DNA of 64,000 nt from Actinomycetes bacterium (lineage in GTDB: Bacteria > Actinomycetota > Actinomycetes > S36-B12 > UBA5976), in assembly GCA_021824095.1 (NCBI GenBank), contig JAKALQ010000001.1:2131-66130 (forward strand), given 5' to 3'. Every line of letters starts with the position of its first letter. Within the stretch, counting starts at the first letter, position 1. The translations under genes and the position numbers were made by a program. The notes beneath the pieces were generated by a model. The model was not told the origin of the DNA and did not search any database. It saw only the letters and a program-made list of their open reading frames with translations. This document shows positions 4,334 through 23,756 of the stretch, one piece after another.

Positions 4334-5392
4334 TCAGCCGGCCATCGCAAGTGCGCGCGACTGTGCCCGCAGGTTGGCCGGAGGCGTAGCGTCCGGCACC
4401 TCACAACCAGCCATCGCGATGAAGCGCTCGCCGCCTTTCAGGCGGCATTCGAGCGTTCCAGCGATGACGTCATCCTCCGTGCCCTGCATGAGGATGGTGA
4501 CCGGATTGATGTTGCCGCAGATCGCGGCAGGTGCGACCGTCGCTGCCGCAACATCGAAGGGCACCATGGAATCAACGTCGATGATGTCAGCGCCGGTCTG
4601 GGCCATCTCGGCCAGTAGGTGCGTGGTGCGGCCACAGATGTGCAACCGGGCCAGCGCACCGCGCGAATGGACGGCGTCGATGATGCGTCGTTGATACGGC
4701 AGGGCGAACTCGCGGTACATCGCGGGCGAGATGAGCGACGTGACCGCATCGCCGATTCCGATGATGTCCGCCCCGGCATCCACTTGTGCCTCAGCAAATG
4801 CGATCTCCTGCAGCGTGCAGAACTCCAGCAGCGCGTGCACCCACGCGGGGTCCTCGGAGACGTCAATCATGATCGGGCTCACGCCGCGCAGATCCGCCGC
4901 CTCGGCCATCGCGCCTTCGACCCAGCCCATGATGGGGATCTCGCCGCCGACCTTCGCTCGGAAGTCATGCAGTGCGGCCAGGCGATCGCTCATGCGCCTG
5001 CCCATACCCGGATCGACGAGCCGCAGATGGTCGATGGATGACCGCTCGACCAGGAGTGGGTCCGCGAGCAGCGGTTGGTCATCATCCGGGAACTCGACAT
5101 CAGAGCCGAGGTCCGCGGCCTCGCGGTAGGGATCGGAGATGGCCTGCACGATGTCAAGGCCGAAATCCTCAACCACGCGGTAGTTCGCATCCGTGAGTGC
5201 ACGATGGTCGAGGTAGTAGTCACGCATCCGGTGCCCCGCGTGGTGCGCAGCGAACGTCATCATGATGTCGAAATTCAGCGGCCGATCCGTCGCCTCACCG
5301 GCGAGGGTCGCACGCAGGCGCTCCATGGAATTCACGAGATGCCCCTCCTCATCCCCCGCCCACTGGTTCACACGCGCCGGGTGAGTGAGCAC
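4334..5392 (-). CDS. Uroporphyrinogen decarboxylase (URO-D) superfamily protein, MtaA/CmuA-like Zn alkyltransferase type
   Basis: 352-aa ORF with a URO-D-like TIM-barrel sequence pattern. A His-x-Cys...Cys zinc motif is present (LHICG and MAGCEVP), as in methylcobamide:CoM methyltransferases. The true start is possibly the internal ATG at 5326 (MERLRATLAGE..). Confidence 0.7.
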   Translation of the reverse strand: MLTHPARVNQWAGDEEGHLVNSMERLRATLAGEATDRPLNFDIMMTFAAHHAGHRMRDYYLDHRALTDANYRVVEDFGLDIVQAISDPYREAADLGSDVEFPDDDQPLLADPLLVERSSIDHLRLVDPGMGRRMSDRLAALHDFRAKVGGEIPIMGWVEGAMAEAADLRGVSPIMIDVSEDPAWVHALLEFCTLQEIAFAEAQVDAGADIIGIGDAVTSLISPAMYREFALPYQRRIIDAVHSRGALARLHICGRTTHLLAEMAQTGADIIDVDSMVPFDVAAATVAPAAICGNINPVTILMQGTEDDVIAGTLECRLKGGERFIAMAGCEVPDATPPANLRAQSRALAMAG

Positions 5393-5463
5393 CCGCGCAT
5401 GCGCCCCATCCTGCGCCCTGCGGTCGATCGGTGGCTAGGGGCGGAGGCGGACAAACGTCTGCG

Positions 5464-6267
5464 TCACCCGAGGAGGGCGTCGATGCGCTCGAGCACGTAG
5501 GTGGGACGCTGGGCGGACGGGGCATCCGCCACCATGTCGCGCGTGCTCTCACCGGTGAGGACGAGTGCAGCATCCATCCCTGCTGCAACCCCCATTGCGA
5601 TGTCGGTGTAAAGGCGGTCACCCACCATGACGCATTCATCCGGTCGCAGCCCCATGCGCCGCATCACGGTCTCCACCATGATCGGGTCAGGCTTGCCGAC
5701 ATTCACCTCGCAACGAACGCCCGTGCAGGCCTCGATCGCGGCCACGATGGCAGCTGCGTCCGGCTCGCCGCGCCCGCCAGGGAACGGGCAGAAGCGATCC
5801 GGGTTCGTCGTCACCAAACGAACCCCCCGATCAGAGCGCAGCGCATCAAACGCGATCTGCAACTTGCGGTACGTGAAGTCCCGGTCATAGCTCGCGATGA
5901 CGATGTCGATGCGCTCCGGATCGGAACTGAGTCGCAACCCGGCCTTCGCCACCGCCTGCACGAGAGGCTCCTCGCCGATGACGAAGACGTTGGCCTCCGG
6001 CGCATGCCCGACAAGCCAGTCCGTCATCGTGACGACGGTGTTCACGATGTCCGTGACGGGAGTTGGGAGGCCGAGGCGCGCAAGCTTGTCGGCGTACATC
6101 GCCGGATCCTTCGTCGGGTTGTTCGACAGGAACACCGTCCGGGCCCCGCGCTCACGCAAGCCGGTGACGAGGTCGAAGGCGCCGGGAAGGAGGCTGTCGC
6201 CGAGGTAGATGGTGCCGTCGAGGTCGAAGATGTACCCGCCGTAGCGCCGCATGACCGCGGTTGTCAT
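5464..6267 (-). CDS. HAD-IIA family sugar-phosphate phosphatase (NagD/AraL-like)
   Basis: DxD nucleophile motif FDLDGT, LSNN motif (FLSNNPT), and C-terminal GKP...MVGDRLYTDI motifs typical of the HAD-IIA subfamily. The ATG overlaps the upstream stop (ATGA at 6264..6267). Confidence 0.85.
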   Translation of the reverse strand: MTTAVMRRYGGYIFDLDGTIYLGDSLLPGAFDLVTGLRERGARTVFLSNNPTKDPAMYADKLARLGLPTPVTDIVNTVVTMTDWLVGHAPEANVFVIGEEPLVQAVAKAGLRLSSDPERIDIVIASYDRDFTYRKLQIAFDALRSDRGVRLVTTNPDRFCPFPGGRGEPDAAAIVAAIEACTGVRCEVNVGKPDPIMVETVMRRMGLRPDECVMVGDRLYTDIAMGVAAGMDAALVLTGESTRDMVADAPSAQRPTYVLERIDALLG

Positions 6268-7793
6268 CGCGTCGTCGCCTGCTCGCCGATGCGCGCAAGG
6301 CCGGGGAAGATGCCTCGCAGTGCCGGGTAGATGCCACGGTAGACGCCGTACAACTCCTCGTAGATGGGCACGCGATCCGGGTCTGGAGTGAAGTGCGCGC
6401 CGATGCCACTCATCTCACAAGCGGCAGTCTCGATGTCCGGATGCAGGCCCGCTGCGACCGCGGCGAGCATGCCCACCCCAAGGCAGGTGCTCTCCGGCTC
6501 ACGGACGATCGCGACATCGCGCTGCAGGACGTCAGCCATGATCTGCGACCACACCCGACTGCGGGACCCACCACCGAGCGCGATGAGTTCACGCACCGGC
6601 GTCCCGGACGCCGCCTCCGCCCCCTCCGTGAGGAAGCGTTGCTCGTAGGCGATGCTCTCGAGGAGCGCCCGGTAGACGTGCGACTTCCCGTGTGCACCCG
6701 TGAGCCCGATCATGGCACCGCGTGCGTGCGGGTCCCAGTAGGGGGTGAGCGCGCCAGTCCAGTACGGGAGCACCATGAGCCCGTCGGCACCCGGCGGCAG
6801 AAGCGCCGCTGCCGTCTCGAGGACCTGCTCCGGCGATAGCTCGAGACCGAGCGCACGTGGGTCGACGCCGGCGAACTTGTTCACGAACCACTGCAGGTTG
6901 AAGGTGCCGCCGCCGATGAAGGTCTCGAAGGTGTAGCCACCGGGCACCGCGGCTGAGAGGACGCGGAAGGCATGGCTGTGTGCGTAGGTGCGGCTGTAGG
7001 TGCCAGCCACGACGCCACTGCCCATGTTGAGGTAGCCGCGTCCGGGCAGGATGGCGCCGGTGCCGAGCTGCGCCGATTGGCCGTCACCGAGTCCGGCAAC
7101 GATCGGGGTTCCGCGGGGGATGTTCAGCTCATCGGCGACGTCGTCGGCAATGGGGGCGACGATGTCACCAGGGGCGACGAGTCGGCAGAACTGGTCACGC
7201 GAGAGGCCGGCCTCGTCGAGCAGTGCGTCGGAGTAGTCGAACGTCGTCATGTCGATGACCCCGAGTGGGTCGGCGCTCCCCCACGACGTCACCCATGCGC
7301 CGGTGAGGCGATGGTTGAGGAAGCCCTGGACGTCGACGATGTGTGAGGCGCGGTGCAGGGTGCTCGGCTCATGGGTGCGCAGCCACAGGAGCTTGTACCA
7401 GGCCGGAGTGAGGTTCGGTGGCTTGCCGGTGATGCCGTGCACTCGCTCGGTGCCGTGCTCCTCGACCTCACGCACGGCACGGCCGTCCATCCACAGCATT
7501 GCGGGACGCAGCGGCTGCCCGAACTCATCGAGGCAGACGAAGGTCTCCCGCTGGTGCGTCACCGCGATCGCTGCGATGCGCGCACTGTCGACGGACTGCA
7601 CGACGCGCGCGAGTGCACGCCGCGTGACCACCCACCAGTCCTCTGCGTTCTGCTCGCCCCACCCGGGGTGCGGATGGCTCGTCTCGTAGGTCGCACGGGC
7701 CTCGGCGATGGCACGGCCCTGCGCATCCCAGACCACCGCCTTCGCAGCCGTCGTCGATGCATCGATGCCGATGACGAGATCACGATCGGTCAT
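6264..7793 (-). CDS. FGGY-family carbohydrate kinase (xylulokinase-like)
   Basis: 509 aa. The N-terminal IGIDASTTAAKAVVWD and HPHPGWGEQNAEDWW motifs match FGGY kinases, and the C-terminal GGGSRS motif is present. ATGA overlap with the upstream gene at 7790..7793. Confidence 0.85.
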   Translation of the reverse strand: MTDRDLVIGIDASTTAAKAVVWDAQGRAIAEARATYETSHPHPGWGEQNAEDWWVVTRRALARVVQSVDSARIAAIAVTHQRETFVCLDEFGQPLRPAMLWMDGRAVREVEEHGTERVHGITGKPPNLTPAWYKLLWLRTHEPSTLHRASHIVDVQGFLNHRLTGAWVTSWGSADPLGVIDMTTFDYSDALLDEAGLSRDQFCRLVAPGDIVAPIADDVADELNIPRGTPIVAGLGDGQSAQLGTGAILPGRGYLNMGSGVVAGTYSRTYAHSHAFRVLSAAVPGGYTFETFIGGGTFNLQWFVNKFAGVDPRALGLELSPEQVLETAAALLPPGADGLMVLPYWTGALTPYWDPHARGAMIGLTGAHGKSHVYRALLESIAYEQRFLTEGAEAASGTPVRELIALGGGSRSRVWSQIMADVLQRDVAIVREPESTCLGVGMLAAVAAGLHPDIETAACEMSGIGAHFTPDPDRVPIYEELYGVYRGIYPALRGIFPGLARIGEQATTR

Positions 7794-9226
7794 ACGAGTT
7801 CCTCCATCGTGCGTGCGAGAGCATCGGCGTCATGGAGGATGCGCGCGACCAACGCGTCGTCCCACCCACCGAGATGGTGCAGCACATCAACCGCGGTGAG
7901 CCGGTTGCGCATCATGTGGCAGTTGCGCAGCGCCCACGCGGCAAGCTCGGGTGCGGTCGTCGGTTCAAGCGCGGTGAATGTGGAAGCAACGCCGGCGGCC
8001 TGCAATGCCCGCGCGATGGTGCGTGCCGGCTTCACCAGCGCCTGGAACTCAGCGCGACGTCCCGGCCACTCGCGCACGAATGCCGCCACCGCGGTGCGCT
8101 GCGCATCCCAGCGGTCAAGCTTCGCGGCGTAGTCAGGCCAGCACTCCTCCGCAAGGGCGTCGGACCCGCCGAGTCCCGCGAAGGCATGAAGCACGGCTGC
8201 CCGCTCCGCTTCACGATCGATCACAGGCGGCACGAATGCCTCACCGTGCAAGGCATCGAGCCTCGCGACGAGCTCGTCCCACACGAGCGACGCGACGACA
8301 CTCGCAACGCCCACCTGCGCACCATGGAGCCCGATGCTGCGATGGGCCGAGGCGTTCGCCATGTCGAGCATGTGGCTCACGAGGTGCTCGACACCGGACA
8401 GCAGTGCCGTCGAACCGGCGACGCCGGTAGCGACGCCGCGGATGTCGAGTGCCCGTACGAGCGCGGACGTCGACTCCGGGTCCGCCTCGGCGAGCCCGGG
8501 TGACCAGTCCTCGATGCCCTCGCCTACGGCGTGCAACAGCGCCACTGGCCCCCATGAGAAGCCGTCATCGAAGCCGAGGTCGCGCGCGAGCAGCCAGTCG
8601 GCTGGTGCGACGAACATGGAGTTGATCTCACCGAAGCCCGCTCGGTTCATCCGCGCCGGCGCCTCGGCGATGAGGACGGTGTCCGCGACGACGATGTCCG
8701 GCCAGCGCGAGGGCACGGTGCGCTTCACGCCGTTGCGGAGGATGACCGAGACGTCATCGGTGAAGCCGTCGACGGATGCCGCGGTCTGAACAGTGATGAC
8801 GGGCACGTTGCCGGCGCCGACGGACGCCATCTTCCCGATGTCGGAGATGGTGCCGCCGCCCATGGCGACGATGACATCGACCCCCCGCGCTGCAGCACTC
8901 GCCTGCGCGATGACGTCCTCCGATGCGTGCAACTCGGGGTACCCGTCATCGAGCACGAGCACCTCGACATCCGACTCCCGGGCGAGTAGCGCGGCAACGT
9001 AGTCCTTCGCCGGCACGCCCCTGCGCATGATCGGGGTGCGATCGACGACGAAGAGGAGTCGTGGGCGACGTCCCCCGATCCCCTGCATGAGGTCGCGCAC
9101 CTTCGCGGGGATATCCGGGAGCACGTTGGCACCCACGAGGATCTCGCGTGTCCCGCAGGGTTCCACGCGTTCCCCGGGGTGTGCAGCGATGACGCAGTTC
9201 ACGGCATCGATGAGGTTCTCGTTCAT
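7790..9226 (-). CDS. Iron-containing alcohol dehydrogenase family protein, glycerol-1-phosphate dehydrogenase (AraM)-like
   Basis: MGGGTISDIGK nucleotide-binding motif and His-rich metal region (VEHLVSHMLD...GLHGAQVG). I place the start at ATG 9226 (MNENLIDAVN), which overlaps the upstream stop (ATGA at 9223..9226). The track ORF's extra 77 N-terminal residues are Arg/Pro-rich and overlap the upstream gene. Confidence 0.78.
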   Translation of the reverse strand: MNENLIDAVNCVIAAHPGERVEPCGTREILVGANVLPDIPAKVRDLMQGIGGRRPRLLFVVDRTPIMRRGVPAKDYVAALLARESDVEVLVLDDGYPELHASEDVIAQASAAARGVDVIVAMGGGTISDIGKMASVGAGNVPVITVQTAASVDGFTDDVSVILRNGVKRTVPSRWPDIVVADTVLIAEAPARMNRAGFGEINSMFVAPADWLLARDLGFDDGFSWGPVALLHAVGEGIEDWSPGLAEADPESTSALVRALDIRGVATGVAGSTALLSGVEHLVSHMLDMANASAHRSIGLHGAQVGVASVVASLVWDELVARLDALHGEAFVPPVIDREAERAAVLHAFAGLGGSDALAEECWPDYAAKLDRWDAQRTAVAAFVREWPGRRAEFQALVKPARTIARALQAAGVASTFTALEPTTAPELAAWALRNCHMMRNRLTAVDVLHHLGGWDDALVARILHDADALARTMEELV

Positions 9227-9969
9227 TGCGATCCTGTCGGGTCGCCCTGGTCGTCCCAGGGATGGGTCTGGAAGTGCGCGTCGAGCACCTCGCGCAGTGC
9301 TGTGATGCAGGCGTCCGCCGTGGCGGCGGGGGAGACGTCGGTCGTCGGGAGCACCGACTGCGGGTCGAAGGGCAGGGCGAGGGCGCCGTACACATCCGTA
9401 AGGACGTCCCGCACTCGTTCGCCGTCGCCGCAGACGATGCCAGCGCCGAACATCCATCCACCGCGCACGATGCGCTGCGCCGTGCCGGCGATCTTGTGCT
9501 GGCCCGCAATGCCGAGGCTGTAGTCCCCCGGGCAGTACTCGTCGACGGCGGCACCCATCTCGGTGGCCACACCGACGTTCTGGAGGGCGTCGCGGATGAG
9601 GCCGGTGAGTGTCGTGAAGCGCTCCTGCGTGCCCGCATGCGGTTCCGCCTCTGACGCCGAGAACTCGATGCAGACAGACGCGGGGGTGTAGGCCACCGCA
9701 TGCCCGCCGGGTGCACGGAGCACCGGGAGGAAACCGTGACGCAACGCGGCGTCGACGGCCCTGTCGTACCCGGGGTTCACGCGGTCCCGCCCGCCGAAGG
9801 CGACGACGGGACGCGGTCGGTAGATGCGCACGAGCGGCAGTCCCCCGATCGCGGTGACCCTGCGGAGGTACGCCGGCCCCATCGCGAGGTCGCTCGTCCC
9901 GGTCTGCATGACGACCGACCAGCGGGCCCGAGGTGCCAAGTGGTCGGTCGTCGTGAGCGCCGGAGTCAC
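9223..9969 (-). CDS. Lipoate-protein ligase A family (BPL/LplA/LipB domain) protein
   Basis: LplA-type catalytic-domain pattern including the conserved lysine motif (HKIAGTAQR) and RAPGGHAV. The start is uncertain: GTG 9969 lies 5 nt after the E2 stop, and ATG 9909 is the alternative. Confidence 0.72.
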   Translation of the reverse strand: MTPALTTTDHLAPRARWSVVMQTGTSDLAMGPAYLRRVTAIGGLPLVRIYRPRPVVAFGGRDRVNPGYDRAVDAALRHGFLPVLRAPGGHAVAYTPASVCIEFSASEAEPHAGTQERFTTLTGLIRDALQNVGVATEMGAAVDEYCPGDYSLGIAGQHKIAGTAQRIVRGGWMFGAGIVCGDGERVRDVLTDVYGALALPFDPQSVLPTTDVSPAATADACITALREVLDAHFQTHPWDDQGDPTGSQ

Positions 9970-9973
9970 GTGG

Positions 9974-10642
9974 TCACCCGGTGATGGTGGCGGCAAGCTC
10001 GCGTCGCAGGGCGGCGAGGAATGCCGCACCGGCCGCACCGTCGACGGCACGGTGGTCGCAGGTGAGCGTGAAGGCCGCCATGGGGCGGATAGCGATGCTG
10101 TCCTCCACGACGGTCACCGTGGGCTTCGAGCTTCCGACGGCGAGGATGGCCACGGCCGGGGGATTCAGGATCGCCGCAAAGCGGTCGATGCCGAGCATGC
10201 CGAGGTTCGAGACCGTGAAGGTGGCCCCCTCATAGTCTGCCGTCGTGAGCGCGTTCGCTCGGGCGCGGACGACGATGTCACGACGACGCCCCGCAATGCC
10301 ATCGAGCGACAGCGCCTCGACACCATGGACGACGGGCACTGTGAGCCCCGCATCGGTCGCCACCGCGAGTGCGATGTTTACCTCCGGGAAGGCGGTGATG
10401 ACCTCGTCAGCGAAGTGCGCATTCAGCTCCGGCACCGCGATGAGCGCACGGGCACAGGCGGCGAGGATGAGGTCGGTCACCGTGACACCCGGGAGGGCCT
10501 TCGCATCCGCGATGGGCCGGGTCATGTCGACGTCGATGCTGAGCGAGAAGGCGGGAGCCGCCCATGCCTGCACCATGCGACGTGATGCGACGCGCCGAAT
10601 ACCCTTCAGGGGCGTGGCGGTTCCCTCGGACAGCACCGCCAT
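9974..10642 (-). CDS. 2-oxoacid/acetoin dehydrogenase E2 acyltransferase, catalytic domain only
   Basis: 222 aa starting at MAVLSEGTATPLKGIRR. Catalytic DHRxxDG motif (CDHRAVDGAAGAAFL) and SNLG motif are present. There is no lipoyl domain and no peripheral-subunit-binding domain. The start shares 1 nt with the upstream stop (TGATG at 10640..10644). Confidence 0.85.
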   Translation of the reverse strand: MAVLSEGTATPLKGIRRVASRRMVQAWAAPAFSLSIDVDMTRPIADAKALPGVTVTDLILAACARALIAVPELNAHFADEVITAFPEVNIALAVATDAGLTVPVVHGVEALSLDGIAGRRRDIVVRARANALTTADYEGATFTVSNLGMLGIDRFAAILNPPAVAILAVGSSKPTVTVVEDSIAIRPMAAFTLTCDHRAVDGAAGAAFLAALRRELAATITG

Positions 10643-14680: not shown

Positions 14681-14712
14681 GGTGCTCCTCCGATGTGTCT
14701 TCGTGTGGATGG

Positions 14713-14955
14713 TCAGTCGGCGGTCTCGATGATGGCGACGACGGTGCGCACCTCGACGGTGTCACCCGGCTGCGCCAAGATCTCAACGAGCGTGCCCGAC
14801 TCCGGAGCAAGCAGCTCCTCATCGACCTTCTCAGCGCTCACATCCGCGATGGGCTCGTCCTCCACAACCGTGTCACCGACGTTTTTCAACCAGGCGTTGA
14901 TGACACCCTCGCTCATGCCCATGCCCCATTGCGGGAGGAGGACTTCGACTCGCAT
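14713..14955 (-). CDS. Stand-alone lipoyl (biotinyl/lipoyl attachment) domain protein
   Basis: 80-aa ORF with the lipoyl-domain pattern (LPQWGMGMSEGVINAWLKNVGDTV...ADVSAEKVDEELLAPESGTL). The candidate lipoyl-lysine is K43. There is no linker, PSBD or catalytic domain. Confidence 0.8.
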   Translation of the reverse strand: MRVEVLLPQWGMGMSEGVINAWLKNVGDTVVEDEPIADVSAEKVDEELLAPESGTLVEILAQPGDTVEVRTVVAIIETAD

Positions 14956-14978
14956 TTCGTTTCCTTTCAGTCCGCCGC

Positions 14979-15995
14979 TTACGCGGCCGCTCCGGCCAGG
15001 CCGAGCATGGTTCGCACGGCGGCGGCGATGCCGTCGCGCTTGGGGTACATCTGCTTCTCCAGCGCTGGGCTGAAGGGGATCTGCATGTCCGGCGCGGTGA
15101 GGCGCACGATGGGCGCCTTGAGCGACGAGAAGGCGTGCTCAGCGACGAGCGCGGACACCTCGGCGGCCGCACCACAGGTGCGATGGGCCGGATCGACGAT
15201 GACGAGACGCCCGGTCTTCTCGACGGCCTTGATGATGCCGTCGACGTCGAGTGGCACCAGGGTGCGGGGGTCGAACACCTCCGCGGTCACACCCTCCGCG
15301 GCCAGTGCATCCGCGGCGGCAGTGGCCTCGATGACGCCGCCGGAGATGGCGACGATCGTGACGTCCGAACCTTCACGCAGAGTGCGTCCGACGCCGAGCG
15401 GGATGAAGTATTCGTCATCCTGCACCTCCTCCTTCATGCCCCACAGTGGGCAGGCCTCGAAGGAGAGCACCGGGTCATCGGAGTCGATGGCGCTGCGGAG
15501 CAGGCCCTTCGCATCCGACGGCGATGCAGGCGCGATGATCTTGAGGCCCGGCACGTTCATGAACATGGGATAGGGACGATCCGAGTGATGCGCACCTGTG
15601 TTGAGGCCGTAGAACATGGCCGAGCGGAACACCACCGGCATCGATGCCTGTCCGCCGAACATGTAGCGGTTCTTCGCCACCTGATTCACGAACTGGTCCA
15701 TGGCCATGTAGAGGAACGACGAGTACGAAAGGTCGACGATCGGCCGGAGGCCCGTCATCGCAGCGCCCGCAGCAGCGCCGACGATTGACTCCTCCGAGAT
15801 CGGGGTGTTTCGGATGCGGTTACGTCCGAAGGTCTGGAGGAAGTCGCCCTCTGCCGCACGGCTCTTGCCCGTGCCGCCGGTGGTGCCGTAGACGTTCGCT
15901 TCAACGTCCTCGCCGATGAGGACGACACGCTCATCCGCAGTGAGGGCCTCTCGCTGTGCAGCGCCGATCGCGCCGAGATAGGTCATGATGCTCAT
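14979..15995 (-). CDS. TPP-dependent dehydrogenase E1 component, beta subunit (AcoB/PdhB-like)
   Basis: 338 aa with transketolase-like pyrimidine-binding and C-terminal domains (GEDV..GGTGK, PISEESIVGAAAGAAMTGLRP). ATGA overlap with the E1 alpha stop at 15992..15995. Confidence 0.9.
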   Translation of the reverse strand: MSIMTYLGAIGAAQREALTADERVVLIGEDVEANVYGTTGGTGKSRAAEGDFLQTFGRNRIRNTPISEESIVGAAAGAAMTGLRPIVDLSYSSFLYMAMDQFVNQVAKNRYMFGGQASMPVVFRSAMFYGLNTGAHHSDRPYPMFMNVPGLKIIAPASPSDAKGLLRSAIDSDDPVLSFEACPLWGMKEEVQDDEYFIPLGVGRTLREGSDVTIVAISGGVIEATAAADALAAEGVTAEVFDPRTLVPLDVDGIIKAVEKTGRLVIVDPAHRTCGAAAEVSALVAEHAFSSLKAPIVRLTAPDMQIPFSPALEKQMYPKRDGIAAAVRTMLGLAGAAA

Positions 15996-16984
15996 CGGCC
16001 TGCTCCTGCCACTTCCGTGTAGAGGTCCTCGAAGGCAACAGAGGCATCCGGGTACGGGCTGCTGTCCGCGAATTGGTAGGCGGCCTCGACCTCGTCGAGC
16101 ACCTCATTGTCCAGCGCATCGAGTTCATCGGCAGTGGCCCATCCCTCGGCGATGAGCCACTCACGCATGATCGCGATCGGGTCACGCTGGAGCCACTGCT
16201 CCTTCTCGTCAGCATCGCGGTAATCGACACCGAGTTTGAGTCCTTCACTGTGCTCTCGGAAGCGGTACGTCATGACCTCAATGAGCGTCGGACCCTCACC
16301 GCGGCGGGCACGATCGACGGCGTCACGCACGGCTTCGTAGACCGCCAGCACGTTCTGGCCGTTCTCGACGCGGACTCCGGGGATCCCGAAGCCGGCGGCC
16401 CGATCGACGATGCGACCGGAGGTCACCGTGTGCGCCGGTGTCGAGAGCGCATAGTGATTGTTCTCGCATAGGAAGACGACGGGAAGCTTCCAGACGCCGG
16501 CCATGTTCATCGACTCATAGAGCGACCCCTGGTTCGCCGCACCGTCGCCGAAGAACGAGAGTACGACGCGATCATTGCCGAGCACCTTGGACGAGAGGCC
16601 TGCACCGAGAGCGATCGGGATGTTGCCCCCCACGATGCCGGACTCGCCGAGGCTGCCGAGTGAGAAGTCGGCGAGGTGCAGCGATCCGCCCTTGCCCTTG
16701 CAGATGCCCGTGGCCTTGCCGACGAGCTCCGCCATGAGTGGGCCGAGGGGGGACCCCTTGCCGATCGGGTGACCGTGGCTACGGTGGTTTCCCGTCATGT
16801 AGTCGGCGTCGCCGAGGGCCATGCAGGCACCGACAACCTGAGCCTCCTGGCCAATGCTCGTGTGCAGGGCACCGGGAATGAGGCCGCGCTTCAGCATCTT
16901 GGACGCGCGCTCGTCGAAGTAGCGGATGCGAAGCATGCGTCGCTGCATCTCGAGGAGCGTCTTCGTCTCGAGTTCGTTGGACAT
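15992..16984 (-). CDS. TPP-dependent dehydrogenase E1 component, alpha subunit (AcoA/PdhA-like)
   Basis: TPP-binding motif GDGAANQGSLYESMNMAGVWKLPVVFLCENN, plus HRSHGHPIGKG and GKATGICKGKGGSLH blocks. The start is taken at ATG 16984 (MSNELETKTL..). Confidence 0.9.
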   Translation of the reverse strand: MSNELETKTLLEMQRRMLRIRYFDERASKMLKRGLIPGALHTSIGQEAQVVGACMALGDADYMTGNHRSHGHPIGKGSPLGPLMAELVGKATGICKGKGGSLHLADFSLGSLGESGIVGGNIPIALGAGLSSKVLGNDRVVLSFFGDGAANQGSLYESMNMAGVWKLPVVFLCENNHYALSTPAHTVTSGRIVDRAAGFGIPGVRVENGQNVLAVYEAVRDAVDRARRGEGPTLIEVMTYRFREHSEGLKLGVDYRDADEKEQWLQRDPIAIMREWLIAEGWATADELDALDNEVLDEVEAAYQFADSSPYPDASVAFEDLYTEVAGAGR

Positions 16985-17009
16985 GAATGGGGTTCCTTTC
17001 GTGCCGGCG

Positions 17010-18065
17010 TCAGCCGTGCGCCTTGCGTGCATTGCGGTCGGTGAGGACTGCGGCAAGGATCACCGCGCCAACCACCACCGGCTGCAGATTGGGGTTGACG
17101 CCGGTGAGGGACAGTCCGTTGTTCAGGACGCCGATGATGAGCAGGCCGATGAAGGTGCTGCCCATCGTGCCGACACCGCCGGAGAGGCTTGCCCCACCGA
17201 TGACGACGACCGCGATGACGTTCAACAGGTAGTTCGCACCGGCGGTGGGCTGCGCTGAGTCGAGCGTCGAAATGTCGACCCAGCCAGCGACTGCCGCCAG
17301 AGCGCCGGCGATCATGTAGACCAGAGTCTTCATCCGAAGGACTGGGATGCCCGAGAGACGCGCGACTTCCTCGTTGCCACCGATGGCGTACAGCGCACGC
17401 CCGCCCGGACGGAAGCGAAGCCAGAATGCGAGGGCGAGGTAGATGAGCATCATGATGACGGCCTGCAGGGGCAGGAAGCCGAAGAGGTCAACCGTCGCGA
17501 AGTTCACGAACCACGTGGGGAAGCCGTTGATGGTGTTGCCATCGGTGATGACGAGAGCAAGGCCGAGGCAGGCCGACATGGTGGCGAGGGTGGCGACGAA
17601 GGGCTGCACCTTTCCGTAGGTGGCGAGTAAGCCGTTGATAGCGCCCACGAAGGCTCCGAGAAGGAGCCCGGCGATGAGCGTCACGACAAAGGGCCAGTGG
17701 TGGTCCGCGTACAGCGACGCGGTGAACATCATGGTGAGGGCCATGTTTGCCGCCACCGACAGGTCAATGCCGGCAATGAGGATCACGAGGGTGGCTCCCG
17801 CGGCCAGAACACCGATGTCCGTGATCTGGCTCAGGATGTTGCCGAGGTTGCGGACGGTGAGAAAGTAGGGCGACTTCAACGTCAGGCCGATGAACATGAC
17901 CACCAGGCCTATGGTGGGGCCGCCGAAGATGCGCATCGCAGAGCGCTTGCGCGCCAGCATTCGCGAGGCCGACGGTGACTCGTCGGCGGAATCGGTGTTC
18001 GTGCTCATAGGTGCGGCTTCCTGTGCTTGGTTCGATGGCATTCGGACTCCCGTGGTCCTCGTCAT
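17010..18065 (-). CDS. Sugar ABC transporter permease (RbsC/AraH-like, type I PBP importer)
   Basis: 351 aa, about 10 hydrophobic segments, RbsC-like sequence pattern. ATGA overlap with the ATPase stop at 18062..18065. Confidence 0.85.
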   Translation of the reverse strand: MTRTTGVRMPSNQAQEAAPMSTNTDSADESPSASRMLARKRSAMRIFGGPTIGLVVMFIGLTLKSPYFLTVRNLGNILSQITDIGVLAAGATLVILIAGIDLSVAANMALTMMFTASLYADHHWPFVVTLIAGLLLGAFVGAINGLLATYGKVQPFVATLATMSACLGLALVITDGNTINGFPTWFVNFATVDLFGFLPLQAVIMMLIYLALAFWLRFRPGGRALYAIGGNEEVARLSGIPVLRMKTLVYMIAGALAAVAGWVDISTLDSAQPTAGANYLLNVIAVVVIGGASLSGGVGTMGSTFIGLLIIGVLNNGLSLTGVNPNLQPVVVGAVILAAVLTDRNARKAHG

Positions 18066-19591
18066 GCAATGGTCTGGGGGACGGCGAGGCTCATGACGGT
18101 CTCGGAGGTGGCCTCGTCGCGCGGGAGCACTGCGATCTGACGCCCGCCGGACATGACAAGCACGCGATGTGCGAGGCCGAGGACCTCCTCCAACTCGGAG
18201 GAGACGAGGATGACGGCGACGCCGCGTGCGGCATAGTCGCGGATGATGGCGTAGATGGACATCTTCGCCCCGACGTCCACGCCGCGCGTCGGCTCATCGA
18301 GGATGAGCACCTTGGGTTGGCGTACCAGCCACTTGGCAAGGAGCACCTTCTGCTGGTTGCCACCGGACAGTCGCACGACGGGACGGTCAAGGCTGCCCCG
18401 GATGTCGAAGGCGGTGCGACTGTCCTCCGCGATGCGGTTGATCCATCCCTTCGTCACGATGCCACGGACGCGCAGGATGCGCTCCCAGGGGGAGACGATG
18501 TTCCGGGACGAGTCGAGTGTGAGATTGAGGCCCTGCTGCTTGCGATCCTCTGGCACCATGACGATGCCGGCCTTGAGCGCGTGGCCCGGGTTGCGAAGGC
18601 GAATCTTGCGCCCTTCCACGGTGACTGCACCACCATCGGCCTTGTCGACCCCAGCGATGGCGCGCACCACCTCGGTGCGCCCGGCGCCCACGAGGCCCGC
18701 AATGCCGAGGATCTCGCCCTTCGCCACCGTAAAGTCGATGCCGTCGAACACACCCTTGCGGCTGAGGTCGTGGACCTCGAGCACGACCTCCGGACTGGCG
18801 GGAGCCGGGGCCTCGTGGCCGAAGACGAAGTCACGTCCGACCATGGCGCGCACGAGCTCCCGCTGCGGGACGTCACCGGACTGCCAGGTCGCCACGACGT
18901 TGCCGTCGCGCATGCACACGATCTCGTCGGAGATGGTGCGCACTTCCTCCAGGCGGTGGGAGATGTAGATGATGCCGGCGCCGTGCTCGCGGAGGACTGA
19001 GATCTGATGCAGGACCCGATCGGTCTCCTGGTTTGTGAGCGATGCGGACGGCTCGTCGAAGATGACATAGCGCGGGTTGCGCGTGATCGCCTTGGCGATC
19101 TCGATGCTCTGCTGCATGGCGATCGAGAGGCCGCGCACCGGGCGTCGGGGGTCGATGTCGATTCCGAGCTTGCGTAGGACCTCGCGGGCCTGCTCCACCA
19201 TGGCGTCCCGGTCGACGCGTAACCCCGCCCGAGGGAGGCGGCCGAGGAAGATGTTCTCGGCAATGGAGAGGTGGGGAACGGTTCGGATCTCCTGATGGAT
19301 GAGTGCGACGCCGGACGCCAGGGCGTCCGCGGGGCTGGCGGGCGCGTATGCGACGCCGTCGATCGTCATCAAACCGGAATCGGGTTGCTGGATGCCGGCG
19401 ATGATGCTGCTCGTCGTCGACTTGCCGGCACCGTTCTCGCCGATGAGCCCGACGACCGAGCCGGCACGGACGCCGAGGTTTACCGAGTGCAGGACCGTCA
19501 CCCCGGCAAAGGACTTCACGAGGTCGGTGACGACCAGAGCACGACCTGCCCCGGTCACTCCATCCGTCGCTACCATGAGATCACCTTCCAT
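18062..19591 (-). CDS. Sugar ABC transporter ATP-binding protein, duplicated NBD (RbsA/MglA-like)
   Basis: 509 aa with two ABC cassettes: GENGAGKST ... IFDEPSASL, and GLVGAGRTE ... LSGGNQQK ... LILDEPTRGVD. Confidence 0.9.
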   Translation of the reverse strand: MEGDLMVATDGVTGAGRALVVTDLVKSFAGVTVLHSVNLGVRAGSVVGLIGENGAGKSTTSSIIAGIQQPDSGLMTIDGVAYAPASPADALASGVALIHQEIRTVPHLSIAENIFLGRLPRAGLRVDRDAMVEQAREVLRKLGIDIDPRRPVRGLSIAMQQSIEIAKAITRNPRYVIFDEPSASLTNQETDRVLHQISVLREHGAGIIYISHRLEEVRTISDEIVCMRDGNVVATWQSGDVPQRELVRAMVGRDFVFGHEAPAPASPEVVLEVHDLSRKGVFDGIDFTVAKGEILGIAGLVGAGRTEVVRAIAGVDKADGGAVTVEGRKIRLRNPGHALKAGIVMVPEDRKQQGLNLTLDSSRNIVSPWERILRVRGIVTKGWINRIAEDSRTAFDIRGSLDRPVVRLSGGNQQKVLLAKWLVRQPKVLILDEPTRGVDVGAKMSIYAIIRDYAARGVAVILVSSELEEVLGLAHRVLVMSGGRQIAVLPRDEATSETVMSLAVPQTIA

Positions 19592-19643
19592 CTGGGGTCT
19601 CGGTCGGCCGCCCGATCTCCACCTCGGGCGGCCGACCGGGTTT

Positions 19644-20612
19644 TCACTTGACGTTCGGCCCGTAGAAGTTGACCGTGTTGACCTTCTTCGCGTTGGCCTT
19701 CGTCACCAGGACGGTGTTCTGCCACTGCCACTTCGGCACCGACGTGCCCTTGCCGTTCACGATGAGCACCGAGTCCTTCACGGCCATCTGACCCATGACG
19801 TAGGGGATCTGGGCCTGTGTGGCCTGGGTGAGGCCCTGACGAATGCCGGCGACCATGGTGGGGAAGCCGTCAATGCCGACCGAGATGATCTTGCGCTTTG
19901 CGTCGCGGGCGGCCTTCGCGGCGCCGAGACCCATCGCGTCCGACTCACCGAAGATGGCTTTCATCTTCGGGTGGCCCTGGAGCATGTTCTGCGCGGCCTT
20001 GTAGGCCTGCGTCTCGTCCCAGTTCGCCGTGGCCTCGGCGACGACCTTGATGCCCGGGGTCTTCTTCAGGGCCTGCTGGCAGCCCTTCGTCCGCTCTGTC
20101 TCGGCCGTGGAGCCAAGGACGCCGTGCAGGATGCCGATCTCGCCCTTGTTGCCCATCTGCTTGAACATCCAGGTGCACAAGTTGCGTGCGGCCTTCACGG
20201 AGTCCGTGGCGATGTAGGTGGCAAGCTGTCCGTTGCCCGACTCGGGCTTCTCATCGACTGCGATGACGGGGATGTTGGCGGCATTGGCAGCCTTCACACC
20301 TGCCGCAGCCGAGGTTGCATCCTGCGCAATGAAGATGAGCGCCTGCACCTGTTGGGTGATGAGGTCGTTCACCTGGTTCACCTGCTGGGTGGAGTTGTTG
20401 TCGGCGGACAGGACGACAAGGTTCACGCCCTCCTTCGCCGCCTCCTTGCGCATGCCATCGACGGCCGCGATGTAGAAGAGCGACTTCTGATCAGCGACCG
20501 AAACACCGATCGTGATCTTGTTCGCCGCGTTCGCCGGAACCGGCCCAGCGACGAGCGCGAGGCTGGTCGCGGCGACACCGGCGAGTGCCAGCGCCTTGCG
20601 GGAAACTGCCAT
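19644..20612 (-). CDS. Sugar/polyol ABC transporter substrate-binding protein (RbsB-like, periplasmic-binding-protein type I)
   Basis: Start at ATG 20612 (MAVSRKALALAGVAATSLALVAGPVPANA, a signal peptide) preceded by an AAGGAG RBS. PBP type I pattern (ITIGVSVADQKSLFY.., IPVIAVD, GIDGFP). Confidence 0.85.
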   Translation of the reverse strand: MAVSRKALALAGVAATSLALVAGPVPANAANKITIGVSVADQKSLFYIAAVDGMRKEAAKEGVNLVVLSADNNSTQQVNQVNDLITQQVQALIFIAQDATSAAAGVKAANAANIPVIAVDEKPESGNGQLATYIATDSVKAARNLCTWMFKQMGNKGEIGILHGVLGSTAETERTKGCQQALKKTPGIKVVAEATANWDETQAYKAAQNMLQGHPKMKAIFGESDAMGLGAAKAARDAKRKIISVGIDGFPTMVAGIRQGLTQATQAQIPYVMGQMAVKDSVLIVNGKGTSVPKWQWQNTVLVTKANAKKVNTVNFYGPNVK

Positions 20613-20670
20613 GGGTTCTCCTTCTCTGGGGTGATCACGGCGGGGACCGCAATCCGGCAAGTCTGCATTT

Positions 20671-20765
20671 TTATGCTTGACTTATATGCCTATGCGTACT
20701 GTAATTTCCAGCGAAGCGGTGCTGTCAATGGCTATACCGAATCGTTATGCTCACACGGTATATGC
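20671..20765. promoter_or_regulatory. AT-rich divergent control region with overlapping candidate promoters and a twice-repeated bipartite motif
   Basis: Plus strand: TTGACT (20677..20682), 17-nt spacer, TGTAAT (20700..20705). Minus strand: TTGACA (rc of 20723..20728), 19-nt spacer, TACAGT (rc of 20698..20703). The bipartite motif TTATGCT-N5-TATATGC (20671..20689) recurs as TTATGCT-N7-TATATGC (20745..20765). TATGC occurs 5 times in about 100 bp. Confidence 0.35.
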
Positions 20766-20807
20766 ATCGAGAGGCCGTCGCGATCAACGGGGAATCGAGG
20801 AGCAGCC

Positions 20808-23617: not shown

Positions 23618-23656
23618 GGCGGGTCCTTTCGTTCTTCGCTATGAGCCTCCCCGCTC

Positions 23657-23726
23657 TTGCACACATGCGCAAGCGGATTGCACACTTGTGCATCTCTTCA
23701 TCACCCAGCCGCTGATTGGTGCACAC
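23657..23726. promoter_or_regulatory. Three phased (T/G)TGCACAC repeats between glpD and the second SorC gene (candidate operator)
   Basis: TTGCACAC at 23657..23664 and 23678..23685 (21 bp apart), and GTGCACAC at 23719..23726 (41 bp further on). The second copy is part of the palindrome TGCACA-CT-TGTGCA (23679..23692). Confidence 0.4.
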
Positions 23727-23756
23727 GTGCCGGCCACTCCCAGCAAGCGCGACACC

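Follow-up and report, generated by a model that had tools for sequence, protein, structure and literature searches.

Acetoin dehydrogenase (AcoA/B/C/L) contains a heterotetramer-type E1 that depends on thiamine pyrophosphate (TPP) and belongs to the PDH-E1alpha-y lineage, PDH standing for pyruvate dehydrogenase. It cleaves an alpha-hydroxyketone without decarboxylating an oxoacid, and the acyl unit is passed to coenzyme A (CoA) by way of a lipoyl group and an E2 acyltransferase. More generally, E1 enzymes of the PDH/Aco type are the textbook catalysts for 2-oxoacids and acetoin. A second point of reference is the erythritol system of Brucella and rhizobia, which combines a CUT2-type importer with a SorC-family regulator (EryD), an FGGY kinase (EryA), and a GlpD-type dehydrogenase (EryB), and in which isomerases lead from tetrulose phosphate to erythrose-4-phosphate. 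Counterparts of both systems stand together in one operon of 15 genes from an Actinomycetes bacterium (assembly GCA_021824095.1, contig JAKALQ010000001.1). The operon lies in the 64,000-nucleotide stretch analysed here, hereafter the window, which is of high GC content (about 0.64-0.73). Judged from its gene families, it most likely serves, under SorC control, to catabolize a small polyol or ketose of four or five carbons (C4-C5) that is taken up from outside. In the general model that we propose, to which we give an even chance of being right, the polyol would be catabolized via a ketose(-phosphate), which the E1, a lipoyl carrier, and E2 would split oxidatively into an acyl-CoA and an aldehyde, and the aldehyde would be joined to dihydroxyacetone phosphate (DHAP) by an aldolase. 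The parts all come from known families. As an initial annotation of the window had supposed, a full-text literature search found no described pathway with this combination, the coverage of that search being partial and so no proof of absence.

The enzymes on which the argument turns are the following, in the order of transcription:

15992-16984, minus strand: TPP-dependent E1 alpha, AcoA/PDH-E1alpha-y-like (PF00676, E1_dh, 261 bits)
14979-15995, minus strand: E1 beta (PF02779 and PF02780, Transket_pyr and Transketolase_C)
14713-14955, minus strand: free-standing lipoyl carrier of 80 residues, with the lipoyl-lysine in AEKV (PF00364, Biotin_lipoyl, 59 bits)
13025-14680, minus strand: GlpD-like polyol-phosphate dehydrogenase dependent on flavin adenine dinucleotide (FAD), accessory (DAO and DAO_C)
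11553-13028, minus strand: accessory FGGY kinase, GlpK-like but changed in its glycerol pocket (FGGY profiles)
10642-11556, minus strand: class II (Zn) DHAP aldolase whose distal pocket resembles that of SqiA (PF01116, F_bP_aldolase, 278.6 bits)
9974-10645, minus strand: core-only E2 acyltransferase of 222-223 residues (PF00198 alone, 205.8 bits)
9223-9969, minus strand: LplA/LipL-like lipoyl/octanoyl ligase/transferase (PF21948, LplA-B_cat, 46 bits)
7790-9226, minus strand: iron/zinc-type alcohol (polyol/polyol-phosphate) dehydrogenase of 478 residues (Fe-ADH), resembling glycerol-1-phosphate dehydrogenase (G1PDH) (Fe-ADH_2/Fe-ADH)
6264-7793, minus strand: xylulokinase-like FGGY kinase (FGGY2; FGGY_N and FGGY_C)
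5464-6267, minus strand: HAD-IIA sugar-phosphate phosphatase (TIGR01460, HAD-SF-IIA, 121 against a cut-off of 100, which it passes)

The catalytic motifs of the set are intact: GDG-x27-NN for TPP in E1 alpha, DHRAVDG (within TCDHRAVDG) at the E2 active site, DLDGT in the HAD phosphatase, the Zn-site motifs HLDH and LHGxSG (LHGASG) in the aldolase, and GGGTISD in Fe-ADH.

The E1 is of the same heterotetramer type and lineage as that of acetoin dehydrogenase, its closest working analogue, and by this analogy we think that the whole module would work in the same way. E1 alpha scores 328 with TIGR03182, for which the cut-off is 394, and its orthologues in Actinobacteria are 69-79% identical; E1 beta is among the most conserved proteins of the set (70-85% identity across 102 loci). 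A number of differences from acetoin dehydrogenase can be noted. First, the lipoyl domain is a separate 80-residue protein, whereas in AcoC it is N-terminal on E2. The modified lysine of this carrier is invariant, and its (A/S)EKV context is kept in the actinobacterial orthologues, the canonical TDKA/TDKV being found in distant relatives. Second, the E2 is a bare catalytic core: PF00198 covers residues 9-217 of 223 and profile positions 5-224 of 232, and Pfam detects neither a lipoyl domain nor a peripheral-subunit-binding domain in the chain. Third, the operon lacks a gene for dihydrolipoamide dehydrogenase (E3). Fourth, a SorC regulator takes the place of AcoR/sigma-54, and the module is interleaved with an aldolase, sugar kinases, and dehydrogenases. 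Acetoin is an unlikely substrate.

The C-terminal hydrophobic motif of E2 enzymes is the knob that joins trimers into 24-mers or 60-mers. Here the chain ends in ...LAATITG, and all cluster orthologues carry a short hydrophilic tail without a hydrophobic knob, whereas ...PALLLL or ...MSMMV is found at the end of distant core-only relatives and of a full-length rhizobial E2. The E2 would consequently form a trimer-only core and no 24- or 60-mer, and the components are probably free proteins around a shuttling lipoyl carrier rather than a giant PDH-like particle. There is a conceptual likeness to the glycine cleavage system, in which a small free lipoyl carrier also serves separate catalytic proteins. 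By contrast, the present operon has as its carrier a lipoyl domain of the E2 type (PF00364) and not GcvH, the partners are unrelated, and the dissociated state is read from sequence. The LplA/LipL-like transferase, whose best NCBIfam match is the LipL-type octanoyl-[GcvH]:protein transferase (47 bits, far under the cut-off), is probably dedicated to this carrier. If this view of the module is right, a free carrier, a knob-less E2, and a dedicated transferase would constitute a natural minimal 2-oxoacid dehydrogenase complex, and could reveal what the giant complexes cannot do without. In Georgenia soli (locus L056), a single cluster contains two copies of the gene for the 80-residue lipoyl protein (5573-5815 and 14479-14721).

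Neither an E3 nor a second E1/E2 is encoded within the 64-kb window. In at least 10 related loci, an E3 gene directly follows that of the E2 core, and one is also present in a paralogous cluster of Cryobacterium. This adjacency in relatives argues that the lipoyl group cycles oxidatively, as in the classical complexes. A redox-neutral, phosphoketolase-like route, in which phosphate would be eliminated from a 1-phospho-ketose to give acetyl-TPP, was considered as an explanation for the missing E3; it is less likely because of those E3 genes.

The strongest evidence for a functional association comes from the comparison of related loci. A genome scan seeded with the E2 core yielded 46 loci and one metagenome scan seeded with E1 beta a further 80; searches for identical proteins and for plasmid copies contributed named strains, for about 140 loci in total. 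All 16 window proteins, the regulator included, were mapped onto these loci by tblastn, with synteny and gene calling filtered by the GC content of third codon positions. In 102 loci, E1 beta is at least 70% identical to that of the window, and 56 of these extend at least 4.5 kb downstream of E1 beta, which allowed the downstream genes to be counted. The gene for the free lipoyl protein comes next in all 56, the aldolase gene is found in 55, the E2 core in 49, and the lipoyl transferase in 43. In 48 of the 49 loci that show both the lipoyl and E2 genes, the aldolase gene lies between them, with or without GlpD and GlpK: the stretch reads lipoyl-aldolase-E2 in 22 loci, lipoyl-GlpD-GlpK-aldolase-E2 in another 22, lipoyl-GlpD-aldolase-E2 in 3, lipoyl-GlpK-aldolase-E2 in 1, and lipoyl-E2 in 1. 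Of the loci, 39 span 18 kb or more; 37 of these contain Fe-ADH, 37 contain FGGY2, and 30 contain the HAD phosphatase. A GlpD orthologue is present in 23 (a further 6 have a second GlpD-like subtype) and the GlpK-like kinase in 19. The full colinear order from binding protein to HAD phosphatase is kept in Jatrophihabitans, Geodermatophilus, Nakamurella, and several metagenome-assembled genomes (MAGs); rearranged versions occur in Microbacterium, Pseudarthrobacter, Kocuria, Nocardioides, and Georgenia. Named carriers include strains of the Arthrobacter group, Kocuria, Microbacterium, Nocardioides, and Nakamurella.

The conserved core therefore consists of E1 alpha, E1 beta, the lipoyl protein, the aldolase, the core-only E2, Fe-ADH, FGGY2, and usually the HAD phosphatase, with the GlpD- and GlpK-like proteins, the lipoyl transferase, E3, and the transporters as interchangeable accessories. 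The co-inheritance of the core across loci indicates that the functional association is real, and the proposal of the initial annotation that the TPP/lipoyl module is embedded in a set of polyol/ketose genes is borne out by the lipoyl (56/56) and aldolase (55/56) counts. Its 15-gene arrangement is found in relatives as this core set and not as a unit of 15: the last gene (URO-D) is absent, and GlpD/GlpK, the lipoyl transferase, and the transporter are variable.

The same comparison bears on the possibility, raised by the initial annotation against itself, that the E1/E2 genes are the sole housekeeping PDH, branched-chain 2-oxoacid dehydrogenase, or acetoin dehydrogenase of the organism and lie beside the sugar genes without conserved adjacency. 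For pyruvate, the usual E1 of Actinobacteria is a homodimer of the AceE type. Copies of the cluster with 74-77% identical E1 alpha are carried by a 389-kb plasmid of Shinella, an alphaproteobacterium, and by a 52-kb plasmid of Rubrobacter, the Shinella copy comprising the full enzyme set together with the lipoyl synthase LipA. Since plasmids carry it, the cluster is not a housekeeping PDH; that reading is rejected on the plasmid copies, the conserved neighbourhood and co-inheritance with sugar genes, and the SorC control. On the Shinella plasmid (L057, 28924 onward), a gene for a glutathione-independent formaldehyde dehydrogenase lies about 1.6 kb downstream of the cluster, past a transposase gene; this may be a coincidence or a hint of formaldehyde release.

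The kinases and dehydrogenases of the operon resemble well-known enzymes without matching them closely. The GlpK-like kinase scores above the cut-off of the subfamily model NF000756 (512 against 498) and below that of the equivalog TIGR01311 (508 against 590). Of the six residues that we take to be the glycerol contacts of GlpK (E. coli numbering), four are kept (Arg83, Glu84, Trp103, and Asp245), while Phe270 is replaced by Val in all orthologues and Tyr135 by Phe in most. With an invariant F270V change and a residue 135 that is mostly Phe, this protein is probably not a plain glycerol kinase, and its substrate pocket is predicted to be enlarged. The GlpD-like dehydrogenase scores 343 with the glycerol-3-phosphate (G3P) dehydrogenase model, just under the cut-off of 360. 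Fe-ADH fails the G1PDH equivalog (125.8 against a cut-off of 413), yet this is its best-matching family: it scores 49.7 with GldA, and its closest solved structures are G1PDHs. For FGGY2, the best match is the XylB model (279 against 380) and the nearest solved structure is E. coli XylB; its orthologues carry the automatic name xylulokinase. The best specific matches of the HAD phosphatase are families of the phosphoglycolate-phosphatase type, under their cut-offs. In the arabinose operon of B. subtilis, AraL (HAD-IIA) adjoins AraM (G1P dehydrogenase), and so the HAD-IIA and G1PDH families occur together within a sugar operon there as well. By contrast, AraM scores as a true G1PDH, whereas Fe-ADH here is far under the cut-off and about 100 residues longer, and B. 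subtilis has no corresponding E1/E2 system.

These profiles, together with the automatic annotation of homologues as acetoin:DCPIP oxidoreductase or pyruvate dehydrogenase E1, could be taken to mean that two unrelated functions share one transcript, namely the dehydrogenation of acetoin/2,3-butanediol (or pyruvate) by an ordinary enzyme and the use of glycerol or sugars through GlpK, GlpD, the aldolase, and a xylulokinase. The GlpK-like protein does exceed the GlpK subfamily cut-off, and the GlpD-like protein comes close to that for G3P dehydrogenase. We consider this reading improbable. In 48 of 49 loci, the aldolase gene has kept its place within the E1/lipoyl/E2 block, many rearrangements and a horizontal transfer to Alphaproteobacteria notwithstanding; every orthologue of the kinase has a changed glycerol pocket; and the regulator and importer are of the sugar type. 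Moreover, neither a butanediol dehydrogenase nor AcoR is found, and a private lipoyl transferase accompanies an E2 and a lipoyl protein that are themselves unusual.

The erythritol system is one of the close comparisons for these genes. The logic of FGGY kinase, GlpD-type dehydrogenase, and SorC regulator that the initial annotation had seen here is matched, along with the CUT2 importer, at the family level only. None of the 15 operon products belongs to the families of the EryC racemase or of the TpiA2 and RpiB isomerases; where the Ery system has the isomerases that produce erythrose-4-phosphate from tetrulose phosphate, the present operon has the E1/lipoyl/E2 module, the aldolase, and the phosphatase.

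The aldolase passes the ketose-bisphosphate aldolase subfamily model TIGR00167 (228.7 against 215.6) and remains under the cut-off of every equivalog model for fructose-bisphosphate aldolase (FBA). Its nearest solved structures are the SqiA sulfofructose-1-phosphate aldolases 8Q57 and 8Q58 (218 bits), which belong to the sulfo-EMP2 (sulfo-Embden-Meyerhof-Parnas 2) pathway. In FBA, the C6-phosphate of fructose-1,6-bisphosphate (FBP) is bound by Ser49, Arg259, and Arg280 (H. pylori numbering), and in SqiA enzymes Ser49 is replaced by Gly and Arg280 by Ala (PMC10665668). The orthologues of the cluster share these replacements (Ser49 to Gly in 75/75, Arg280 to Ala in 69/75), so that the Arg259 equivalent alone is kept; as in SqiA, the Zn site and the DLR arginine are retained. 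In the distal-anion loop, which contacts the sulfonate in SqiA, they have a conserved Arg (73/75), where SqiA has Gln51, and an invariant His (75/75). By our reckoning, the sulfur of sulfofructose-1-phosphate lies five bonds from C2, as does the distal phosphorus of a pentulose-1,5-bisphosphate, whereas that of FBP is one bond further away. The SqiA-like pocket and the conserved Arg and His of the loop hint at a short, anionic aldehyde partner. The enzyme may condense rather than cleave, opposite to the aldolase cleavage assumed in the initial annotation.

The resemblance to SqiA also suggests that the operon could encode a variant of sulfoglycolysis, that is, sulfosugar or C3-sulfonate catabolism with the aldolase cleaving sulfofructose-1-phosphate. 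The nearest solved aldolases and the shared pocket substitutions are what this has in its favour. Nevertheless, the loci annotated contain no sulfoquinovosidase, sulfoquinovose isomerase, sulfolactaldehyde dehydrogenase/reductase pair, or sulfonate exporter, and the window lacks a sulfoglycolysis context. Class II sulfofructose-phosphate aldolases are described from Firmicutes and Proteobacteria and class I enzymes from Actinobacteria (PMC10665668), and a 2026 review of sulfoquinovose pathways mentions no lipoyl-dependent step. Despite the SqiA-like aldolase, the reading was thus set aside for want of any other sulfoquinovose gene, and we regard it as very improbable; the substrate of the aldolase here is presumably a phosphorylated or neutral ketose-1-phosphate.

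Taken together, the gene families are compatible with the following general scheme. The CUT2 importer of the ATP-binding cassette (ABC) type would bring a polyol into the cell, where a dehydrogenase and a kinase would turn it into a ketose(-phosphate); two such pairs are available, FGGY2 with the G1PDH-like Fe-ADH and the GlpK-like kinase with the GlpD-like FAD dehydrogenase. The AcoAB-like E1 would then attack the ketose carbonyl and break the C2-C3 bond, as in acetoin, and the resulting C2 unit would be loaded reductively onto the lipoyl-lysine of the carrier and handed to CoA by the core-only E2. Reoxidation of the carrier would fall to dihydrolipoamide dehydrogenase, a housekeeping enzyme here and a cluster-encoded one in relatives. 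Finally, the aldolase would join the aldehyde fragment to DHAP, and the HAD phosphatase would trim the resulting 1-phosphate.

Our leading specific guess within this scheme, which we hold tentatively and consider, taken by itself, less likely than not, is that a tetritol is split into two C2 halves; it is the only scheme that uses each core enzyme exactly once. A tetritol (erythritol, D-threitol, or L-threitol) would be oxidized to erythrulose by Fe-ADH, and erythrulose would be phosphorylated to erythrulose-4-phosphate by the xylulokinase-like kinase. The E1, the lipoyl carrier, and E2 would convert the latter into glycolyl-CoA and glycolaldehyde-phosphate. The glycolaldehyde-phosphate would be recaptured, as the aldolase would condense it with DHAP to xylulose-1,5-bisphosphate, from which the HAD phosphatase would release xylulose-5-phosphate. 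The GlpK-like and GlpD-like proteins would represent a second entry of the EryA/EryB type. Cleavage would in this way substitute for the isomerase routes to erythrose-4-phosphate of Brucella and Mycobacterium. Since it removes the only stereocentre and leaves an achiral fragment, the route would be stereo-convergent, which would explain the absence of isomerases.

For the chemistry of the cleavage step, the closest precedent is found in the biosynthesis of tetrahydroisoquinoline antibiotics. According to one report, which cites work by Peng and colleagues from 2012, the two-component transketolases of the NapB/NapD type, as well as QncN/QncL, use TPP to pass a C2 (hydroxyethyl) unit from a ketose phosphate, xylulose-5-phosphate, to a carrier protein (PMC7570522). 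Those enzymes are derived from transketolase, fused to an E2-like part, biosynthetic, and deliver to an acyl carrier protein, whereas the present locus has a PDH/Aco-type E1, separate parts, a catabolic context, and CoA as the presumed acceptor. In that 2012 work, the Nap-type transfer reportedly goes via a lipoyl group and an E2-like acyltransferase. The E1 of PDH is encoded by aceE. According to a further study, mutations in aceE let E. coli survive without the first step of the methylerythritol phosphate (MEP) pathway (PMC3424233). Both observations suggest that the proposed chemistry is feasible. Cleavage of a ketose(-phosphate) also becomes more plausible in the light of the comparative data, namely E3 in at least 10 relatives, four swappable dehydrogenase families, and the ketose-phosphate precedent.

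Several points weigh against this interpretation. E1 enzymes of this Pfam type are not known to use substrates other than 2-oxoacids and acetoin. The cluster encodes no enzyme that consumes glycolyl-CoA, the HAD phosphatase is missing from 9 of the 39 long loci, and one locus, that of Glaciibacter, shows no aldolase. The GlpK-like protein lies above the NCBI GlpK subfamily threshold, and GlpK and GlpD may just process glycerol. Lastly, Fe-ADH is nearer to G1PDH, which has a phosphorylated substrate, than to glycerol dehydrogenase, and would therefore suit an order in which the kinase acts first better than the tetritol scheme.

A kinase-first order is the basis of another route, which we consider possible and yet unlikely. 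In it, a kinase would give a polyol-1-phosphate, the G1PDH- and GlpD-like enzymes, with opposite stereospecificities, would oxidize this to a ketose-1-phosphate, and the aldolase would cleave the product into DHAP and glycolaldehyde, glyceraldehyde, or a similar hydroxy-aldehyde; the E1/lipoyl/E2 module would form an acyl-CoA by acting on that aldehyde or on the ketose-1-phosphate itself. G1PDH and GlpD both oxidize the carbinol beside a phosphorylated carbon, which yields the DHAP-like head group that class II aldolases cleave. Furthermore, the two kinase/dehydrogenase pairs replace each other across loci, and GlpD, GlpK, and the aldolase are translationally coupled in the window. In one metagenome locus (L074), which has two aldolase copies, one copy directly follows GlpD-GlpK, the other lying between the lipoyl and E2 genes. 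Such a route would leave the HAD phosphatase without a role, however, and a ketose-1-phosphate is not a donor of the transketolase type. To our knowledge, no TPP/lipoyl system has a plain aldehyde as its substrate, and such a reaction would be wasteful compared with a CoA-acylating aldehyde dehydrogenase. The conserved Arg and His of the aldolase loop suggest an anionic rather than a neutral aldehyde partner.

Should the general model prove true, a PDH/Aco-type E1 that cleaves a sugar-derived ketose(-phosphate) would represent a new way of breaking carbohydrate C-C bonds, beside aldolases, transketolase, and phosphoketolase, and the C2 unit would enter the CoA pool directly. Should the tetritol scheme in particular hold, this would be the first sugar-phosphate substrate for an E1 of the PDH/Aco type. 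As the cluster is common (102 loci, named carriers, and plasmids), its substrate is probably an environmentally relevant polyol, and because several carriers are culturable, the question is directly testable. The cultured strains include the Pseudarthrobacter of CP139438.1, Kocuria rosea, Microbacterium proteolyticum CECT 8356, Nakamurella endophytica CGMCC 4.7308, Geodermatophilus sp. DSM 45219, and Shinella sp. WSC3-e.

The variants of the cluster differ in their dehydrogenases. Most loci have the Fe-ADH/FGGY2/HAD triad as the dehydrogenase front end. The Rubrobacter plasmid instead carries a Zn-dependent dehydrogenase with GlpD/GlpK and no triad, and the Glaciibacter cluster reads SorC, a short-chain dehydrogenase/reductase (SDR), E1 alpha, E1 beta, lipoyl protein, and E2 core. 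The loci annotated in detail that have an SDR or a Zn-dependent dehydrogenase are without the triad; two metagenome loci show both. For the SDR of related clusters, the second-best NCBIfam match is GolD/DthD, galactitol/D-threitol dehydrogenase (208 against a cut-off of 286). Four unrelated families of polyol(-phosphate) dehydrogenases, represented by the SDR, the Zn-dependent enzyme, Fe-ADH, and the GlpD-like proteins, thus feed one very conserved E1, which suggests that stereoisomers or related polyols converge on one ketose. Salinibacterium, Agreia, and Cryobacterium harbor a paralogous cluster that is composed of a fused E1 alpha-beta, an aldolase, GlpD-like and GlpK-like proteins, an SDR, and another FGGY kinase. 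The fused E1 is 688-689 residues long (L009, 5159-7225; L010, 4051-6117; L040, 3471-5540), and no gene for a lipoyl protein is detectable within the stretches fetched.

A sister clade of E1 enzymes, 47-49% identical, is found in plasmid operons of rhizobia and agrobacteria. These operons are ordered as transporter, PfkB kinase, an oxidoreductase resembling DRL/DXR-II (PF21135), E1 alpha, E1 beta, full-length E2, LpdA, and LipA, as in S. meliloti pRM41A (L060, 5994-14803) and A. tumefaciens pAtCFBP7129b (L062, 1715-15916); a SorC regulator is also present and a GlpD-like gene lies nearby. DRL-like genes likewise accompany E1, the lipoyl protein, the E2 core, and a glucitol-type phosphotransferase system in Chloroflexi (L026 and L031). 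These DRL-linked clusters indicate that Aco-type E1 systems have been recruited repeatedly into polyol catabolism, and they suggest an undescribed catabolic use of chemistry of the type found in the conversion of DXP (1-deoxy-D-xylulose-5-phosphate) and MEP.

They are also a reason to consider that the E1 of the window might act on a methyl ketone and give acetyl-CoA together with (phospho)glyceraldehyde or glycolaldehyde. Candidate substrates would be 1-deoxy-D-xylulose(-5-phosphate) and 3,4-dihydroxy-2-butanone(-4-phosphate), derived from an imported deoxy or methyl-branched polyol such as 2-C-methyl-erythritol. E. coli XylB is able to phosphorylate 1-deoxyxylulose. Acetyl-CoA would require no extra dedicated enzyme, which is consistent with the gene content. 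The sole demonstrated activity of the DRL/DXR-II family is the interconversion of DXP and MEP, and functional DXR-II occurs in strains without the MEP pathway (PMC3847144). On the other hand, neither the window nor any of the orthologous loci in Actinobacteria contains a DRL/DXR gene, an identity of 47-49% does not transfer substrate specificity, and the aldolase, the HAD phosphatase, Fe-ADH, and GlpD would have no obvious role. We therefore find this derivation of acetyl-CoA unlikely and retain cleavage of a ketose(-phosphate) of the polyol as the preferred reading.

Some further neighbourhoods of E1 relatives were recorded. One type of cluster (L055, L052, L016/17/33/36, L079, L087, L103, L107, L112-115, and others) regularly has three extras, none of which is in the window: an epoxide-hydrolase-like protein (EHN plus alpha/beta hydrolase), with 80-86% identity among most carriers; an Xaa-His dipeptidase of the PepD type, which scores 441 with TIGR01893 (cut-off 344); and a second CUT2 transporter with two permeases. 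The epoxide-hydrolase-like gene and the DRL-like genes of the sister operons prompted the idea of a link to the breakdown of methylerythritol or isoprene epoxydiols, which was discarded as speculative, neither gene being in the window. In two MAGs of Anaerolineae, L022 (12849-13831) and L021, distant E1-E2 core relatives stand beside shell genes of bacterial microcompartments (BMC domain, EutN/CcmL), and the same neighbourhood contains an OMPdecase/HUMPS-family protein and a ketopantoate-hydroxymethyltransferase-like protein. In the closest relative, an uncultured-bacterium MAG (L001, 6812-7288), the xylulokinase-like kinase (83% identical) breaks off after roughly 160 N-terminal residues and gives way to unrelated sequence, probably as the result of an assembly break or a rearrangement.

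Regulation and uptake involve the following features at the upstream end of the operon:

20808-21785, plus strand: SorC-family regulator with a helix-turn-helix (HTH) and a sugar-binding domain (PF04198, 138.5 bits, plus HTH; 325 residues in the public call)
20613-20807, no strand: divergent control region of 195 bp, relatively AT-rich, with five GCATA/TATGC repeats
19644-20612, minus strand: CUT2-type, RbsB-like secreted sugar/polyol-binding protein (Peripla_BP_4, PF13407, 182.9 bits)
19599-19640, no strand: GC-rich hairpin of 17 bp (14 of them GC), within the 52 nt that separate the binding-protein gene from the ATPase gene
18062-19591, minus strand: ABC ATPase with two nucleotide-binding domains (two ABC_tran stretches; AraG/XylG/RbsA-like, under the cut-offs)
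17010-18065 (or from 18008), minus strand: RbsC-like ABC permease (PF02653, BPD_transp_2)

The best NCBIfam matches of the regulator are Bacillus DeoR and LsrR, both far under the cut-off. In low-GC relatives (L069, L076, L083, and L090), repeated GCATGAATA-type motifs and a TTGACA box occupy the same intergenic place as the control region here, and the GCATA/TATGC and GCATGAATA repeats are candidate SorC operators or operator half-sites. A scan of the divergent control region found no consensus sigma-70 promoter. The binding protein scores 150.7 with the RbsB model (cut-off 337). Of the 10 residues that we take to be the ribose contacts of the E. coli protein, 5 are kept, 2 are conservatively replaced, and 3 are changed (N13S, R90E, and N190S). 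With half of the contacts kept and these three changed, the ligand would be a related small sugar or polyol and not ribose. The hairpin behind the binding-protein gene is without a U-tract on the operon strand and could stabilize or partially terminate the binding-protein transcript. A variant of the Lsr system for autoinducer-2 was likewise tried as an explanation of the operon and rejected: the operon contains no member of the LsrF or LsrG families, the LsrK, LsrR, LsrA, LsrC, and LsrD models are far under their cut-offs, and LsrB is absent from the reported NCBIfam matches of the operon products.

As regards the layout of the locus, 15 open reading frames (ORFs) on the minus strand span positions 4334-20612, where the initial annotation had placed 15 co-directional genes, and Pfam and NCBIfam profile searches agreed with the family that it had named for each product, including the divergent regulator (HTH and Sugar-bind) that begins at 20808. 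The same sequence is present in a public MAG contig (DAIERO010000005.1, GCA_027346785.1), the independent gene calls of which match except for three start codons. The permease may start at 18065, with an ATGA overlap, or at the ATG at 18008 of the public call, which leaves a 53-nt gap and no overlap; the N-terminus of this protein is poorly conserved. The lipoyl transferase may start with the GTG at 9969 or the ATG at 9909. The public call starts the E2 core at the ATG at 10642, compared with a GTG start in the present gene call. The seven ATGA overlaps that had been reported (18062, 15992, 13025, 11553, 9223, 7790, and 6264) are present in the sequence, that at 18062 hinging on the permease start, and so is the TGATG overlap at 10642 (TGATG/GTGATG). 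The remaining junctions are gaps of 52, 25, 23, 32, and 4-64 nt, and one of 128 nt before the last gene; a purine-rich sequence resembling a ribosome-binding site precedes several of the starts. An Rfam scan of the whole window gave no matches.

That last gene of the operon is the following:

4334-5335, minus strand: URO-D/MtaA-family protein (PF01208, 212.8 bits; TIGR01463, 161 against a cut-off of 235)

It has the same direction as the other genes, and a counterpart was found in none of the related loci examined. Because 128 nt separate it from the preceding gene and no relative has it, the conserved unit comprises 14 genes plus the regulator, and the URO-D protein was rejected as a member of the pathway. 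No corrinoid-protein partner for it was noticed, though no search was aimed at one.

The flanks of the operon contain three other genes of note. Downstream of it, the longest ORF of this part of the window (997-3579, minus strand, 860 residues) has an ABC ATPase domain at its C-terminus in addition to an alpha/beta-hydrolase or X-Pro dipeptidyl-peptidase S15 region; it represents either an unusual fusion or two genes that the longest-ORF rule has run together. Directly upstream of the regulator of the operon lies a divergent pair that consists of a second GlpD-like dehydrogenase (21890-23617, minus strand, 575 residues) and a second SorC regulator (23688-24734, plus strand, 348 residues). The dehydrogenase is 35% identical to its operonic counterpart and scores 326 with the G3P dehydrogenase model, for which the cut-off is 360; the pair (21890-24734) could represent a further polyol-phosphate module.

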